Sequence record: NC_049344.1
Length of the DNA: 37,583 nucleotides
Reading direction: 5' to 3' (one strand)
Source of the DNA: Escherichia phage 520873
In this document: piece after piece, positions 5,011 to 12,388 of the stretch
How the letters are laid out: each line of letters opens with the position of its first letter
How positions within the stretch are numbered: the stretch's first letter is position 1
Translations under genes and position numbers: made by a program
The notes under the pieces: model-generated
What the model was told of the DNA's origin: nothing
The model's input: only the letters and a program-made list of their open reading frames with translations
Database searches by the model: none

Positions 5011-5096
5011 CCGCGCAAATAAGACTCCAGGTTAAATAAGAAAATGTGAAAACAATCCGCATTCGCGGAGGTATTCGCACACGCCAAGGAGGCGTA

Positions 5097-5300
5097 ATGG
5101 CAATTAAGCATTTTCCTGTCGTTCGTTTCACCTCCAGAGGACGTGAATACGAAGTTGACGAACGCCTGATTACCACAATCGACAAACACCGTTCAGAAAA
5201 GGATGCACATCACATCTATCTCACTGACGGCACTTACTTCTGCGCCACCAACGTGGTGCAGGTGAATCTTATCAGACAGGTACAGGAGTCACGCAGATGA
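5097..5300 (+). CDS. Hypothetical early protein
   Basis: ATG at 5097 with RBS AAGGAGG (5086-5092); in frame with track ORF 5046..5300. Confidence 0.4.
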   Translation: MAIKHFPVVRFTSRGREYEVDERLITTIDKHRSEKDAHHIYLTDGTYFCATNVVQVNLIRQVQESRR

Positions 5301-5542
5301 CCATTCTGGACTACATCGCTGCCAATCCGGGTTGTAGTGGTGGAGAAATCGCCGCAGCACTGATTACCCCAACCACAACCATTAATGCGGAGTTACGCCG
5401 TCTCTGGCGCAGCGGTTCAGTCATAAGAAAAGAACGCAAAACAGGCGGTCGCTTTTCTTATCAGGTAAACCCGATGCCGTTTGGGTGTAGCAACCCACTA
5501 ACCCAGATGTTCAACCAGCTACTGAGGGAAATCAGAGCATGA
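5297..5542 (+). CDS. Hypothetical early protein, possible winged-helix DNA-binding fold
   Basis: ORF in track with ATGA overlap to the upstream gene. Confidence 0.4.
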   Translation: MTILDYIAANPGCSGGEIAAALITPTTTINAELRRLWRSGSVIRKERKTGGRFSYQVNPMPFGCSNPLTQMFNQLLREIRA

Positions 5543-5683
5543 GCACCTCCTACTGCCGGAAACCACGTCGGGCTTCAGCAGCTCATCCGGCAGCAAAACA
5601 AACTCCGTTAATTCCTGTTCCGGGCCTTTCCTGCACCTTGCGGCGGGAGGCCTTCGCACATCTGCAACAAGAGGATTGCCGCA

Positions 5684-6560: not shown

Positions 6561-8875
6561 TTGCTGTACCTGCCACAGCTCAACAAGCACCAGATACAGA
6601 CGCTGGCCGTCATGACAGCGGCGATGTTCAGCAGCACCTTCGAAAAACTCTGCGATGACTTTGGCGCGATCGACGGCGAGCTGACCATGGATATAACGCT
6701 GAAGGCGTATCAGATGCTGGCCCGCATGGCGTTACATCTGCAGACAGTGCCGCCGCATTATGACGCACTGACAACAGACAAAGACCGGAAGAACGAACCG
6801 GACACGGAACTGCTGCCGGGTGCAATCCTCCGCCTGACCTGTGCGGACTGGTGGAAACGCAAATTGTGGCTTTTACGTTGCGAATGGAGAGAGGAACAAC
6901 TCCGCGCTGCCTGTCTGGTTTCCAGAAAAACATCCCCCTATCTGAGTCAGGACGCATTAAGTGAATTTCGCGCACAGCGCGAGAAAACACGCGATTTCCT
7001 GAAAAGTTTCATGCTGGAAAATGAAGACGGGTTCACGATTGATCTCGAGACGGTGTATTACGCGGGAGTAAGTAACCCGGTCCACCGTAAGGCAGAAATG
7101 ATGGCCACCATGAAGGGGCTGGAACTTCTGGCCGAAGCCCGTGGCGACAAAGCGGTATTTCTGACCGTTACCTGCCCGTCAAAATATCACGCAACAACGG
7201 AGAGCGGTCATCCGAATCCCAAATGGAACAGCACCACCATGCGCGATTCCAGCGATTACCTGGTTAACACTTTTTTAAGGCAGTCCGCAAAAAACTGAAC
7301 CGCGACGGCCTGCGCTGGTATGGCATCCGCACGGTGGAGCCACACCATGACGGCACCGTGCACTGGCACATGATGGTCTTTGCACATCCTGAAGAAATCG
7401 ACAGCATCGTGGACATCACCCGTGATATTGCCATTCGCGAAGACCGCCACGAGCTGGGCAATGACATAACTCCGCGCTTTAAGGCAGAGTACGTCGACGG
7501 TTCGAAAGGTACGCCGACCAGCTACATCGCCACCTACATCGGAAAGAACCTGGACAGCCGCGCCGTGGATGGCATTGACCCGAAAACAGGCAAGCCACGC
7601 GTTGATCACGAAACCGGAAAATCAATGGCCGAGAGCGTGGAACGCGCCATCGGCTGGGCGCGCCTTCACCGCGTCCGCCAGTTCCAGTTCTTTGGTATCC
7701 CCTCCCGTCAGGTATGGCGTGAACTCCGCCGCCTTGCCAGTCAGATGGCCCGCAGCCCGGAAGGTCCACAACGTCTGGAAAATGACGCAATGGATGCGGT
7801 ACTCGCTGCCGCTGATGCCGGGTGTTTTGCCACCTACATTGAGAAACAGGGTGGCGTACTTGTTCCACGCAAGGATTACCTGATTCGCACCGCCTACGAC
7901 CTCGCAGAAGAGCTGAACGATTACGGCGAGCAAAGCGTACAGATTTACGGGATCTGGTCGCCACAAATCGGGGAATCTTCCCGCGTGTGCACGCACCCGG
8001 ATAACTGGAAGCTGGTAAGACGTAAACCGGAAGCGGAAGACAGCGCCCGCGAAAATGGTTTTGACCTTCAGGGCGGCCCTGCCGCCCCTTGGACTCGTGG
8101 CAATAACTGTCCCCGTGTACAGGAAACGGACAACAACGGGACAGAACAGCCGGAAGAACGGCCAGCACCGTGGCCGCAGCTTCCTGACGGCGTTGACGTG
8201 AACGAATGGATGCGCTCACTGAAACGGCACGAACGCCGGGCGCTGATGCGTTCGCTTCGTGACAAACAGGCAAAAAACAGCAGCGATGAAATGCAGAACT
8301 GGACACAGAGCCGCAAACAGCCACAGCCTTTGCCTGATAACCACGAGTTACTCGCTAAAGAATGGCGGGAGTCTGCTGAATCTCTCGGCCTGCATATTGG
8401 TGAACAGCAGATGCAGCACCTGTTACGGGGCGGCAGTCTGTACGTTGACGGCAGCATCATTGCACCGCAGGGATTTGAAATTGTACGCAAACCGGATACC
8501 CGCCCGGACAGCCGAATCACGCAGCTCTGGCAACGCCTGAGCCGTAATCACGGCGTAAGCAGCACGGAGATCCGCCATAACCCGGTCGCCAGCTATCTGG
8601 AACAGCTGGGGGCATCAGACCCTGAAGCCGCCGCACGCCTGGCATCCACACTTCAGCAAGACCAGAACACCATGAAAACCCCCGTTACCGTGCTTTCTGA
8701 CATGCTGCGCGCCATCCGTGACGCAGAGCACGCACAGAGAATCAGTGAAACCACTGAACGCGCCCACCGCAAAGCAGACCTGCTGCGGGGTAGCCTGACC
8801 AGTGGAAACAAAAAACAGACAGAAACGGGACTCACAAATCCCGTAAATGAGCAAAAAACGTGCCGCGATATATGA
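6561..8875 (+). CDS. A: Replication initiation endonuclease gpA (HUH rolling-circle initiator); apparent frameshift at the T6 run 7271-7276
   Basis: Two ORFs (6561..7298, 7334..8875) totalling ~760 aa, similar to P2 gpA (761 aa); HUH motif EPHHDGTVHWHMMVF; the second frame is open back to 7268 and joins the first at aacacTTTTTTaagg. Confidence 0.8.
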
Positions 8876-8951
8876 AGCACGCACAAAACAGGCAAAAGAG
8901 GGATTTCAGAATCCCGTAAACGGTTAATTAATCAACATAAGGAAAATCGAC

Positions 8952-9911
8952 ATGAAAATTTGTATCGACGACGGCTCCACCAACATCAAGCTGGCATGGA
9001 CTGAGAACGGCGAACGCCGCAACGCCATCAGCCCGAACAGCTTCAAGTCGGAATGGTCTGCGCCGTTCGGTGGCACGCAGCCCGCGAACTACATGCTTGA
9101 TGGCGTGCGCTATGGTTTTGATCCGGTCAGCGATCGCTTTATCCAGACGACCGACACGCAATACCAGTACAGCGATGTGAATGTCATTGCCATTCATCAC
9201 GCGCTGGTCAAATCAGGCATCACGCCACAGGAGGTGGATGTGGTTGTCACCCTGCCACTGAGCGAGTATTTCGACACAAACGCACAGCCGGACATGGCCA
9301 ACATCAACCGCAAAAAAGCAAACGTTATGCGCCCGGTGGAATACCAGAACGGCGAAGCATTCACTATCCGTAATGTACGGGTTATGCCTGAATCCATTCC
9401 GGCTGGCTTTAAAGCACTGGCTGACATGAGTCCGTTTGAATCCCTGCTGATTGTGGATTTAGGTGGAACCACGCTGGATGTGGCAAAGGTTCAGGGACAA
9501 CTGGCAGGTATCAGCCAGGTGTTTTGCGATCCACACGTAGGCGTTTCCCTGATGGCTGATGCAGTACTGTCGGTGATGGCCACTAACGGTATGCGTACCA
9601 GTCACCACATCGCCAATACCATTATCGAACATCGCCATGATGAAGCCTGGCTGCGCCAGCACATCCACAATGACGCGCATTACGCCAGCCTGATGGCGGT
9701 TATTCGTGAAAAGGAAGAAACACTGAAACAACGCGTGATCCGCGCGCTGGCGGGTTTTTCGGGTTACGGGCGGGTGATGGTTGTCGGTGGCGGGGCGGAG
9801 ATTGTGGCACCCGCTATCCGCGAAGCCTGCGGAGTTAATGCGACTTTCATCGCGGACGGGGTGCCACAGTTTGCTCTGGTTAATGGGCTGTACGCAATGG
9901 ACAAGGAGTAA
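8952..9911 (+). CDS. parM: ParM/StbA-family actin-like segregation ATPase
   Basis: IDDGSTNIKLAW, ISPNSFKSEW, YSDVNVIAIHHALVKSG, MPESIPAGFKAL, LLIVDLGGTTLDVAKVQGQLAGISQVF, VMVVGGGAEIV, ALVNGLYAM align block-for-block with remembered plasmid R1 ParM; RBS AAGGA upstream. Confidence 0.85.
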   Translation: MKICIDDGSTNIKLAWTENGERRNAISPNSFKSEWSAPFGGTQPANYMLDGVRYGFDPVSDRFIQTTDTQYQYSDVNVIAIHHALVKSGITPQEVDVVVTLPLSEYFDTNAQPDMANINRKKANVMRPVEYQNGEAFTIRNVRVMPESIPAGFKALADMSPFESLLIVDLGGTTLDVAKVQGQLAGISQVFCDPHVGVSLMADAVLSVMATNGMRTSHHIANTIIEHRHDEAWLRQHIHNDAHYASLMAVIREKEETLKQRVIRALAGFSGYGRVMVVGGGAEIVAPAIREACGVNATFIADGVPQFALVNGLYAMDKE

Positions 9912-9915
9912 ACCA

Positions 9916-10227
9916 ATGACGACACCAACCAGGCGGATAAGTTTCTATCTGAAGCCTGCGGCCGTCAAGAACGAAAGCGAAGCATGCGCCTGGCTGGACA
10001 GCCTTACACCGGAAGCCCGCAAAAGCGGCCAACGCGTGGCTTTTCTGGCCGGGCTGGCACTTCTGAAAATGAATCCGGCAGAGGCTTACCGACTGGCCGC
10101 ATGGGCTGATGATGAGATGTTACCTGTGACACAAATCAGCTCAAAAAAGTTTGAAGCACAGTCTGCACCAGTGGCTAAGATAACCAGCCAGATGGCTGGG
10201 AATATCCGGGCGTTATTTCCTGAGTAA
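9916..10227 (+). CDS. parR: ParR-like centromere-binding adaptor
   Basis: RRISFYLKP...LDSLTPEARKSGQRVAFLAGLALL...RALFPE parallels remembered R1 ParR (RRTIAFKLNP...LDSIPQGERSRLNRAALTAGLAL...RSLFPKE); RBS AAGGAG, starts 5 nt after the parM stop. Confidence 0.75.
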   Translation: MTTPTRRISFYLKPAAVKNESEACAWLDSLTPEARKSGQRVAFLAGLALLKMNPAEAYRLAAWADDEMLPVTQISSKKFEAQSAPVAKITSQMAGNIRALFPE

Positions 10228-10355
10228 AAGCATCTGCGCGAAAAATGCTCACGTTTATAGAAACAGTATCATTCCATTTGGCACACTTACTTCAATAATC
10301 GATCTGTTAAACAAATAGATTGTCTATTATCTATCGATTAAAACGATCAATTATC

Positions 10356-10383
10356 TTGACAGTAATGTGCCTTTTTGTAAGAT
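10356..10383 (+). promoter_or_regulatory. Sigma-70-like promoter (TTGACA-N16-TGnTAAGAT) in an AT-rich GATC/ATCGAT-rich region
   Basis: TTGACA at 10356-10361, extended -10 TGTAAGAT at 10376-10383. Confidence 0.4.
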
Positions 10384-10389
10384 CGTTCG

Positions 10390-10576
10390 CATTGTGAGCG
10401 ACAAGATAATTGCGCAGCATTGTCCATGCAAAACGCCCCAATAGCAGCAACTATTGGGGCGTAAAACTCGGTCGGACTCACTTAACCTGATATGCGTGCC
10501 TTCCGAAGTAGTTCAAAATGTGCGTCGTATATTTTATTGCTTACACGCACCTCTGTAAAGGCACGCATATTTTTCC
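10390..10576 (+). promoter_or_regulatory. Structured ~185-nt leader or small RNA ending in a terminator-like hairpin
   Basis: Perfect 11-bp hairpin CGCCCCAATAG/CTATTGGGGCG (10434-10461); nested hairpin with perfect 13-bp outer stem ATATGCGTGCCTT/AAGGCACGCATAT (10490-10570) followed by T5 (10571-10575), 16 nt upstream of the next start codon. Confidence 0.3.
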
Positions 10577-10591
10577 TATGAGGTAAATAAA

Positions 10592-10861
10592 GTGCGGGCT
10601 AAAACAGGTATTTGCAAGAACCCTCATCGTTATAACCCAACATTTCTGTCTCTCCCTGAATATCAAGGACAAGAAGGTCGGCACAAATGCGCTGCCTGTG
10701 CTTTTGAGCTAGGCATAAAAGATGCGCTTGAAGGACGCGCTATGGCTCAGAATGATTTAGTTTTAGCTAACATTCCGTTTAGCCAGGCTGGAACTGTAAG
10801 GCACAGAGATGCCTATGAAGCATATGTTCGTGGTTGGCGATTAATACACAGCAACAATTGA
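10592..10861 (+). CDS. Hypothetical small Cys/His-containing protein (89 aa), function unknown
   Basis: GTG start with GAGG RBS; product contains CKNPH...HKCAAC; own promoter and terminator. Confidence 0.5.
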   Translation: MRAKTGICKNPHRYNPTFLSLPEYQGQEGRHKCAACAFELGIKDALEGRAMAQNDLVLANIPFSQAGTVRHRDAYEAYVRGWRLIHSNN

Positions 10862-10870
10862 TACTTTTGA

Positions 10871-10894
10871 AGCGCCGATAAGGCGCTTTTTTTG
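10871..10894 (+). terminator. Rho-independent terminator
   Basis: AGCGCC-gataa-GGCGCT followed by T7. Confidence 0.55.
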
Positions 10895-11347
10895 TTTGCA
10901 CGATAGTGCACAAGTTTGCACAATTTTTTTGAACGACTTTTTGTACTTCCGGCCCGCATGGCGGCTGGATCCGTCAAGGATCCGTGCGTGCACAAAAAAA
11001 CGCGTTTTTTCTGCGCGCAGGTGACGGGGGAACAGCCCGCGTTTCAGGGGGTAAATAGCGCTCCCTTAACGATGTCGCAGCGACACGACAGAATGGCCGT
11101 ATTTCTCACGCTGAGCGTGAAAAATACGTGAGGGATTCTGATTTGATGGGGTGAAAGGTAAGGCCGTCAAAATCGCACTGAGGCGGCGAGAACATGCAGT
11201 CAACGCGGTGGGATTGCGTAAGAGTCTGACCGTCGATGGTGGCGATAAACTGGAAGGCGTCGTGAAATTATCTGACTGATACAGGAGCTGGAGAGTCGGG
11301 GCATAAATTTTTTATGCCCCGGCGAAGCAGCAGACAAGCGAAGCGCG

Positions 11348-12388
11348 TCAGGATGTGGGCTGGATGTCTAACAGTGCGTAAGGGTTAAAGCGGATCACCT
11401 CTTCGCCAAGCCAGTCATTGATGTGCTTCATGGCCTCCATGACGGGCATCAGCTCGTTAATTGCGTAAACCCGCGCGGCCTTCTCCACATCACCAAACGC
11501 ACTTTTTTCACCCGGCATCGCCCCCATCAGTTGCGGCGGAACGCGGTGCGCAGCCAGCACATCATCACGGGATGCCGCCTTAACATTCATGAACTCATCC
11601 TTTGCGGTGATCTGCTGGAACGGCAAAATTTGCACCCCCTCTTTGCCCCCGTTGGGCGCATGAATGAGCACGTTTTTAAACGCACCACCACCACGCGCAC
11701 CCTGTAGCGTTTCTTTCAGGGAGTCCATGCTTTCGCGGTTTACCTGCGCTGCACCGATGTAGATGATGCACCCGGCGTGGGATCCGTTGTCGTAATACAG
11801 TTTTCTGAACATGTCCGCCGAATGAGACAGGCTGGCCGAGAGTAATGCGCCGAGATATTCCGGCATGCCGTAGATTTCCTGGTTAATGTCAGGATTCATC
11901 AGGTGACACACTTTGCCAGGGCGAAACTGAAACGCGTCCTTGCCATCCTGCACATACCACCATGATTCAAGATCGCTTCCGCGTCGCATGTATTTCGCCA
12001 GGGCGTGCCGTAATTTAAGCGGTTCGCCGAGCATATTGCTTCGAAGCTCAAGAAATGCGTTACCGAACACAAACCAGTCCAGCGCCGAGAAATCCTGCCG
12101 GGAAAGCAGCGGGTGCGGGATGTAGCAACCGAGTAATACATTGCGCTTAAAGTAAAGCGCAGACTGATGCCAGGACGTTTGCCGGGCAGCTCTTGCCAGA
12201 CCGTACCAGTCCACCGGGGTTTCATACCACCGACCGTTATCAGCACAGTACATATTGTCCAGCAGGTCATGCCCGGTCAGGCGGTAAGGACCATCAAATG
12301 TGAATGCACTGAGCGACGATTCTTTCCTGAGCGCATCAGCGAGATCAATGCGTGAACTCATGCGCAATTTTTTATTTTTTCTGCTCAT
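11348..12388 (-). CDS. Q: Portal protein gpQ
   Basis: 346-aa ORF matching P2 gpQ in size and position, immediately downstream of the terminase gene. Confidence 0.9.
   Translation of the reverse strand: MSRKNKKLRMSSRIDLADALRKESSLSAFTFDGPYRLTGHDLLDNMYCADNGRWYETPVDWYGLARAARQTSWHQSALYFKRNVLLGCYIPHPLLSRQDFSALDWFVFGNAFLELRSNMLGEPLKLRHALAKYMRRGSDLESWWYVQDGKDAFQFRPGKVCHLMNPDINQEIYGMPEYLGALLSASLSHSADMFRKLYYDNGSHAGCIIYIGAAQVNRESMDSLKETLQGARGGGAFKNVLIHAPNGGKEGVQILPFQQITAKDEFMNVKAASRDDVLAAHRVPPQLMGAMPGEKSAFGDVEKAARVYAINELMPVMEAMKHINDWLGEEVIRFNPYALLDIQPTS

Follow-up and report, generated by a model that had tools for sequence, protein, structure and literature searches.

Escherichia phage 520873 (NC_049344.1) is a P2-like (Peduoviridae) E. 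coli prophage, and its record of 37,583 nucleotides, referred to here in its entirety as the window, contains a compact cassette that encodes an 89-aa protein downstream of a long folded leader. We interpret this cassette, with modest confidence, as an autonomous moron in which the structure of the 5′ untranslated region (5′UTR) and a ∼100-nt cis-antisense RNA together gate the mRNA, with probable input from Dam methylation. The interpretation draws on the sequence features, discreteness, and protein family of the cassette, and on features observed in its relatives, namely leader structure, both promoters, GATC enrichment, and an association with D12/DpnII systems; from these we infer activity of the two promoters, a repressive antisense RNA, and a possible target and function of the protein.

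In the mechanism that we propose, an accessory gene that entered the prophage between parR and its cos-proximal backbone would be transcribed from a sigma70 promoter with Dam (GATC) sites. The mRNA would comprise a ∼200-nt folded 5′UTR with two hairpins (H1 and H2) and an occluded Shine-Dalgarno (SD) sequence, the open reading frame (ORF), and an intrinsic terminator, and its product would be a basic, probably zinc-binding, internally duplicated protein of 89 aa. A convergent promoter in H2 would drive transcription of the opposite strand toward H1, yielding a ∼100-nt non-coding RNA with full complementarity to the central 5′UTR. Protein expression would then be gated after initiation by antisense pairing and/or transcriptional interference, in addition to occlusion of the ribosome-binding site, and would probably be tuned by the methylation state of GATC as well.

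The cassette has sharp limits (Table 1). DNA resembling parR occurs in 661 complete E. coli genomes, and the match ends at position 10227 or 10242 in 495 of them and runs on in just 166, while the right-hand backbone, found in 1,142 E. coli genomes, usually starts at 10897; the cassette-specific DNA therefore extends from ∼10228/10243 to 10896 (∼670 bp). Leader and ORF are inseparable, as both are present in the 166 genomes (of 5,426 E. coli genomes) that carry the cassette and neither was found alone in the collections searched; a DNA-level comparison with PLSDB plasmids matched neither. In the chromosome of strain 510016 the finding region is 100% identical, in Escherichia phage 503458 (genus Xuanwuvirus) it is 99% identical, and carriers include well-studied pathogens such as enterotoxigenic E. 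coli (ETEC) H10407, O157:H7 (for instance FRIK2455), and O111.

The insertion site, between gene A and portal gene Q and near cos, is that of the gpA-gpQ cos-proximal hotspot of P2-like phages (Rousset et al. 2022, PMC9122126), where about a quarter of these phages have a putative partition system (PMC9122126). A first-pass annotation, made from the letters of the window, had described a self-contained promoter–leader–ORF–terminator unit in a cargo hotspot. The genome comparisons bear this out, and its promoter, its nested hairpin with a perfect 13-bp outer stem, its GTG-initiated 89-aa ORF with CKNPH...HKCAAC, and its terminator were all recovered.

Table 1. Coordinates of the cassette, its predicted control elements, and neighboring features in the window
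Feature	Position	Strand	Remarks
Replication gene A	ends 8875		upstream neighbor in gene order
ParM	8952–9911		Pfam and RefSeq annotation
ParR/StbB-type protein	ends 10227		Pfam and RefSeq annotation
AT-rich upstream region, cassette-specific	10228–10355	+	left limit from parR match ends
Perfect 11-bp inverted repeat	10348–10412		CAATTATCTTG / CAAGATAATTG, on both sides of the plus promoter
Sigma70-type promoter	10356–10383	+	TTGACA-16-TAAGAT, 10/12 consensus positions; predicted start near 10390
Predicted 5′UTR of the 89-aa ORF	10390–10591	+	∼200 nt
Predicted cis-antisense RNA	10428–10524	−	∼100 nt; inferred from promoter and hairpin
Hairpin H1	10433–10462	strand-neutral	perfect 12-bp stem, 6-nt loop CAGCAA
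Hairpin H2	10490–10570	+	perfect 13-bp outer stem 10490–10502 / 10558–10570; inner hairpin 10520–10549
Promoter inside H2	10531–10559	−	TTTACA-17-TAAAAT, 10/12 match; directed toward H1
SD sequence	10582–10585	+	GAGG; pairs with ACCU just 5′ of H2 in the minimum-free-energy fold
89-aa protein	10592–10861	+	GTG start; isoelectric point (pI) 9.2; contains CKNPH...HKCAAC
Intrinsic terminator and cassette right end	10869–10896	+	8-bp GC-rich stem 10869–10889, then T-run
Conserved backbone	10897–11347		∼450 bp, 3′ of cassette
Portal Q	11348–12388	−	terminase next

The E. coli leader is predicted to be strongly folded: the stretch 10385–10600 reaches −76.9 kcal/mol against −54.8 ± 4.3 for shuffled sequences (z = −5.1), and none of 200 shuffles was as stable. 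H1 had been described as a perfect stem of 11 bp at 10434–10461; the stem is indeed perfect and is one pair longer. Its 3′ flank reads AAAAC on the plus strand and TTTTG on the minus strand, and H1 was ruled out as a plus-strand terminator, since the residues after it form a run of A and not of U. H2, which carries the motif CTGTAAAG in its 3′ arm 33 nt upstream of the start codon, is followed by TTTT at 10571–10574, 17 nt before the start codon, and the run of five T reported earlier is obtained only by including the paired T10570. With its SD sequence occluded, the predicted mRNA resembles the structured messages of type I toxin-antitoxin (TA) systems, both in the E. coli fold and through a covarying SD hairpin in relatives. 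Within E. coli the leader varies by 2–6 substitutions across 166 genomes and 33 viral contigs, with none in the stems.

Two further elements lie around the plus promoter, where the perfect 11-bp inverted repeat is a possible operator and the upstream region contains an imperfect 26-nt inverted repeat (10295–10320 / 10329–10354). We also considered H2 as a single-stranded DNA (Frpo-like) promoter and ruled this out, since the promoter faces away from the ORF and these phages inject double-stranded DNA.

Homologues with 54–76% identity in lambdoid and P22-like phages are preceded by leaders of like layout. Upstream regions from 107 loci gave 68 unique sequences, 43 of which have a common ∼230-nt leader composed, from 5′ to 3′, of a GATC-flanked plus promoter, H1, an A-run, H2, an SD-sequestering hairpin (H3), and the start codon. 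In nearly all of them the highest promoter score falls on the plus promoter, 200–236 nt 5′ of the start codon. H1 combines a GCCCC/GGGGC base with an upper stem that covaries freely: its equivalents form 25 distinct hairpins of 9–14 bp, in which 239 pairs are Watson–Crick, 10 are G–U, and 10 are mismatched. The 3′ arm of H2 contains a nearly invariant GTGTAAAGC.

RNAalifold applied to 14 Salmonella-type leaders recovered H1, H2 (outer and two inner stems), and H3. Cells were paired in 95.9% of cases compared to 89.6% after shuffling, and the covariation score was 0.261 compared to 0.139, values that none of 500 shuffles reached (slid controls, ≤ 0.093). G–U pairs occupy fixed positions in the H2 outer stem (12/14 and 7/14 sequences) and in H3 (8/14 and 7/14). 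The complementary strand would have A–C mismatches at these places, which identifies H2 and H3 as plus-strand RNA structures. Three-round covariance models (R1–R3) unite the Salmonella-type, Arsenophonus, two Providencia, and Gilliamella leaders, and all their matches in relatives lie on the plus strand and end at the start codon. With Rfam 15, neither the window region nor any of six related loci gave a match at E < 0.1. The regulatory leader suggested by the first-pass annotation is supported as a conserved element, its helices being kept in relatives by compensatory changes and plus-strand-only G–U pairs.

Separately, the H1 loop is an exact reverse complement between sister sequences with an unchanged stem (L059 vs L061 and L084 vs L088; CGGCAA vs TTGCCG and CGTCAA vs TTGACG), which suggests that a DNA inversion flipped the tip of H1.

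The leader also has a conserved opposing promoter. In ∼36 of 42 leaders, drawn from five sequence groups, TTTACA-17-TAnnnT is located 28–41 nt 5′ of the start codon and is the best minus-strand promoter-like site across the whole 330 nt. The −10 hexamer differs between groups at a constant 17-bp spacing, being TAAAAT in E. coli, TAGACT in Providencia, TAAACT in Arsenophonus, TAATCT, TAGTCT, or TAACCT in the Salmonella type, and TACAAT or TAGAAT in Gilliamella. Across both strands of the window, TTTACW-N17-TANNNT matches once, at the site inside H2, with 0.24 matches expected.

An RNA started there would have a mostly unstructured 5′ portion of 60 nt followed by the 12–13-bp H1 hairpin and UUUUGC, with a predicted fold of −35.6 kcal/mol (z = −3.9), and we propose H1 as its terminator. 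The small RNA of this locus would likely be on the strand opposite to that of the separate ∼185-nt species suggested earlier, in support of which nothing was found. No minus-strand ORF is conserved across the related leaders, and a small hydrophobic 44-aa minus-strand ORF through H1 (10347–10481), considered as a type I toxin, was ruled out for lack of conservation in relatives. In E. coli CH4793 (NZ_CM166350.1), an IS1X4 element is inserted in the leader at ∼10521, between the minus promoter and H1, giving a natural mutant in which the proposed antisense unit is disrupted.

GATC is enriched in these leaders, with 63 sites in 17 representative sequences against 15.4 expected. Conserved positions adjoin both the −35 and the −10 of the plus promoter, and most groups also have sites in the minus-promoter spacer and at its start site. 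In E. coli, three sites (10301, 10345, and 10381) fall within 84 nt around the plus promoter, compared to a window average of 2.4 per kb; one sits 8 nt 5′ of the −35, and that at 10381–10384 overlaps the −10. This overlap follows the pattern TAnGAT+C, realized as TAAGAT+C in E. coli and as TAGGAT+C or TATGAT+C in the Salmonella type. Such placement suggests Dam or SeqA input, which also acts at the GATC of IS10 pIN.

The E. coli leader agrees with its relatives in part order and spacing, from the plus promoter with GATC through H1 and its A-run and H2 with TGTAAAG and the minus promoter to the occluded SD sequence. The covariance models rank 10425–10494 first or second within the window, and chance is unlikely because this H1-type match and the unique minus-promoter match are both positionally right. 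We regard the leader of E. coli as either a divergent form of the family leader or an analogue of it.

The protein itself matches PHROG 3941 (function unknown) over its full length (E = 6.3e-49; residues 4–89 vs profile positions 1–86/86), and searches against Pfam, NCBIfam, PADLOC, and PDB sequences returned nothing convincing, in line with the first-pass annotation, which could name no family. HMMER, run exhaustively against 1.84 billion representatives, identified 172 relatives at E < 1e-3, most of them stand-alone proteins of 80–100 aa; a word-index protein search had returned near-identical E. coli copies only. In a 46-member alignment C8, H12, R30, G41, Q65, and R70 are invariant and Q25, H31, C33, C36, S64, and H71 nearly so, and the C-x3-H ... 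C-x2-C set (C8, H12, C33, C36) is plausibly a zinc site. The sequence is internally duplicated, with two copies of Q-x-G-x-x-R-H-[KR]-x-A-x-x-A-[YF]-x-x-G, and a strand/helix pattern likewise occurs twice in the AlphaFold model. Structure prediction, which the first-pass annotation had proposed as a check, gave a confident model (predicted local distance difference test score, pLDDT, 91.7), for which Foldseek found no significant fold match in the PDB.

The top Foldseek match was ribosome modulation factor (RMF; 2jrm), which was not significant (E = 1.4). Pfam RMF (PF04957) weakly matched 11 of the 46 members (best E = 2e-4) and not the window protein itself; the scores of ≤ 18.9 bits compare with a Pfam cut-off of 27.9, the matches cover a single helix of ∼18 residues, and the hhalign probability was 8%. 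The R-x-x-x-A-x-x-x-G-[YW] motif in each of the two repeats resembles the first helix of RMF, which, unlike the 89-aa protein, has no CHCC site, and we take the likeness to be that of a common basic helix motif rather than of family membership. Annotation of the ORF by the Prokaryotic Genome Annotation Pipeline (PGAP) is patchy, missing it in ETEC H10407 and strain 503025 despite an intact frame, and literature searches on the family accessions, PHROG 3941, or the DpnII and DGQHR pairing found nothing relevant.

Homologues with 54–76% identity are single genes at moron positions of temperate phages. A Providencia phage and an Arsenophonus plasmid-prophage have theirs on the opposite strand, between the Q antiterminator and lysis genes; the Salmonella P22-like phage BIS08P22 has one just 3′ of cI at the rex/bstA position, and in IMG/VR contigs they adjoin gtrA-like or umuD-like genes (translations read by eye). 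In two Gilliamella-type loci (L051/L052, 2723–4028), the homologue and its leader stand directly 5′ of a 306–310-aa BstA_C protein (abortive-infection defense). In a lambdoid contig (L053, 3333–3661), hok and a full-scoring sok (RF01794, 98 bits) follow immediately 3′ of the homologous cassette, so that two antisense-controlled cassettes adjoin.

Distant family members from outside phages occur within operons of D12 methyltransferase, DpnII, and N6_N4 methyltransferase genes (L008, L010, and L114). In two Bacteroidales genomes the domain, either stand-alone or as the N-terminus of a 279-aa protein, lies between the DpnII endonuclease and the N6_N4 methylase, 3′ of a D12 (Dam-class) methylase, and L114 has a DGQHR/DndB fusion in the equivalent slot of its D12-DpnII-...-N6_N4 operon. 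A stand-alone copy adjoins a D12 and N6_N4 methylase pair in L115 and L116, and in L118 an 890-aa fusion is located 3′ of a D12 methylase and 5′ of a helicase. Further fusions involve HNH_2, NOV_C (PD-(D/E)xK), and BrxR-type WHD-WYL modules. No methylase is present in several other contexts whose flanks are adequate (plasmids L054–L058, L050, and L111). Beside the methylase pair of L115, a 181-aa ORF (5057–5602) with no Pfam match has a PD...(E)IK-like motif (PDKALVV...IIEIKNQ) and may be an unannotated restriction endonuclease.

Because the domain is usually accessory to nucleases, methylases, or regulators, it is better read as a binding module than as an effector. Judging by gene neighborhood, the 89-aa protein most likely binds nucleic acid as a module associated with N6-adenine (GATC-type) methylation systems. 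The simplest reading is of a small module that would read DNA, possibly at GATC or through its N6-methyladenine state, for the benefit of nucleases and regulators, and that prophages of Dam-positive hosts would use by itself. A stand-alone and previously undescribed reader of GATC/N6-adenine methylation, combined in temperate phages of Dam-positive Enterobacterales with Dam-sensitive convergent promoters and a new structured leader/antisense pair, would amount to a methylation-responsive switch, an idea that we advance tentatively and would not expect to hold in all its parts. If it did, the switch would serve phage defense, anti-restriction, or epigenetic control of the lysogen.

Several observations weigh against the antisense-gated, methylation-tuned cassette that we favor. 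The best match of the covariance models in the window (10425–10494) covers H1 only and is not significant (E = 0.43, 1.1, and 1.5), and an nhmmer profile of the related leaders found nothing in the window; the link between the E. coli leader and the family is thus one of layout and position rather than of sequence. Of the Rfam and covariation check proposed in the first-pass annotation, then, the Rfam part was negative, and the covariation part succeeded for the leaders of relatives and left that of E. coli without a significant connection to them. A covariation test within E. coli is impossible because the leader is nearly invariant there. E. coli H2 contains no GATC, and plasmid homologues with 40–48% identity do not have the common leader. 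Only a short U-tract follows H1 on the minus strand (UUUU in E. coli, UUUCC or UUCCC in relatives), which makes termination at H1, and hence the 3′ end of the antisense RNA, uncertain. On the protein side, no D12 or Dam-like methylase was found among the scanned early-region ORFs of the prophage, a soluble basic protein is atypical for a type I toxin, and the proposal that the protein possibly reads DNA at GATC or by its N6-methyladenine state, on behalf of nucleases and regulators, comes from gene neighborhoods.

The cassette could be a type I TA or abortive-infection system, in which a growth-inhibiting protein is restrained by a labile minus-strand antitoxin RNA and freed when an infecting phage shuts off host transcription; this is a specific version of the favored reading with a claim of toxicity added, and we think it unlikely. 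A long structured 5′UTR, an occluded SD sequence, an antisense promoter within the UTR, location in a defense hotspot, and relatives in defense or TA neighborhoods all speak for it, and non-membrane type I toxins exist, such as SymE and RalR. However, type I toxins are typically hydrophobic peptides of < 60 aa, and the protein, at 89 aa and pI 9.2 with a predicted soluble helical fold, is neither small nor hydrophobic; the PADLOC scan gave no match, and the accessory role of the domain points to binding rather than to an effector. At the other extreme, the leader might serve mRNA stability and insulation only, the minus promoter-like site being a by-product of the plus-strand motif UGUAAAG with no functional antisense RNA. 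The near invariance of GTGTAAAGC in the H2 3′ arm could indeed be kept for RNA reasons, and the minus-strand U-tracts are weak, but five sequence backgrounds all retain TAnnnT at a spacing of precisely 17 bp from the −35, which disfavors this account, and GATC sites flank the minus promoter in relatives. We rate it as distinctly improbable.

Very improbable, in our judgement, is the attenuator or riboswitch put forward by the first-pass annotation, in which H2 and its U-run would act as a conditional intrinsic terminator that decides transcription of the ORF. The E. coli arrangement invites it, with a 13-bp GC-rich outer stem and UUUU 17 nt before the start codon, but the U-run is specific to E. 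coli and missing in all related leaders, which have an SD-sequestering hairpin instead, and it is disfavored on both counts. H2 is moreover an 81-nt hairpin with a large interior that the terminator scan did not call, and no Rfam family matches. We identified no antiterminator that could form as an alternative, and the leader shows no evident unpaired core that is conserved and resembles a ligand pocket. Control is more likely exerted at translation or through antisense RNA than by attenuation. Barely credible is a type III TA-like or c4/CI-like arrangement in which the plus-strand leader would be processed to a small RNA acting on the protein or on its own mRNA. The order of promoter, structured RNA, terminator-like hairpin, and ORF resembles that of ToxIN and of the P1 c4-icd-ant leader, but the leader has no tandem repeats (its self-matches are inverted only), PADLOC and Pfam gave no ToxN/AbiQ-type match, and neither C4 nor any other Rfam family was found.

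The prophage around the cassette shows several features of its own. Two 39-nt direct repeats (8809–8847 and 8882–8920) lie just 5′ of parM, overlapping the end of gene A; each holds an ACGGGA...TCCCGT palindrome, and they are a candidate parC centromere/promoter of the ParM/ParR (StbA/StbB-type) locus. Gene A is divided into two ORFs in different frames (6561–7298 and 7334–8875), where strain 2014C-3011 has one coding sequence, and the integrase is similarly divided (1039–1539 and 1611–2039), indicating either a decaying prophage or assembly indels. The record of phage 503458, from the same study series, contains many single-base deletions. The backbone on the right presumably contains cos, has terminator-like hairpins at 10906–10921 and, as GGGGCATAAATTTTTTATGCCCC, near 11295–11320, and includes a 42-aa ORF (11151–11279) that RefSeq lists as hypothetical.

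If the favored reading is right, a new cis-regulatory and antisense RNA family is common to cassettes that move from one cargo hotspot to another among P2-like, lambdoid, and P22-like phages. The cassettes would also carry a new small Cys/His domain, with no solved structural relative, that recurs in adenine-methylation restriction systems and nuclease fusions, and would possibly link Dam methylation to control of a prophage accessory gene. Should the reading be wrong, a cleanly bounded hotspot cargo gene of unknown function is still described. The kind of system, an antisense-controlled accessory cassette, is known; as far as the libraries searched show, the RNA family, the protein family, and the methylation association are undescribed.

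Among known systems, hok/sok and other type I TA modules (zor-orz, tisB-istR, and symE-symR) share with the cassette a long folded 5′UTR with an occluded ribosome-binding site, a convergent promoter in the UTR that yields a short cis-antisense RNA with a strong hairpin at its 3′ end (predicted here), and a compact, self-contained organization on prophages and plasmids. They differ in encoding a small membrane peptide, whereas the cassette encodes a soluble basic Cys/His protein of 89 aa, without any Rfam or sequence relationship to them, and has GATC enriched at both promoters. The pIN/pOUT arrangement of IS10 with RNA-OUT is similar in its face-to-face promoters, in an antisense RNA directed at the 5′ end of the mRNA (predicted for the cassette), and in a GATC over the −10 of the sense promoter, through which Dam methylation can tune expression. 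IS10, however, has a transposase and an overlap of 36 nt, whereas the cassette has no transposase, an overlap of ∼100–135 nt, and a long structured sense UTR.

P22 sar/ant and lambda OOP/cII likewise place a temperate-phage gene under a short antisense transcript, as is predicted here, but in the immunity region, whereas the cassette has a different gene in a cargo hotspot. Sub-threshold Rfam matches to sar and ctRNA on the minus strand of H1 (22 bits vs gathering thresholds of 43–45) reflect only its terminator-like hairpin. The cassette matched no PADLOC model and is not described in PMC9122126, which does mention the adjoining putative partition system. With the other cargo of the P2 gpA-gpQ site (old, tin, retrons, and others), it has in common a cos-adjacent locus and the character of a variable accessory gene.

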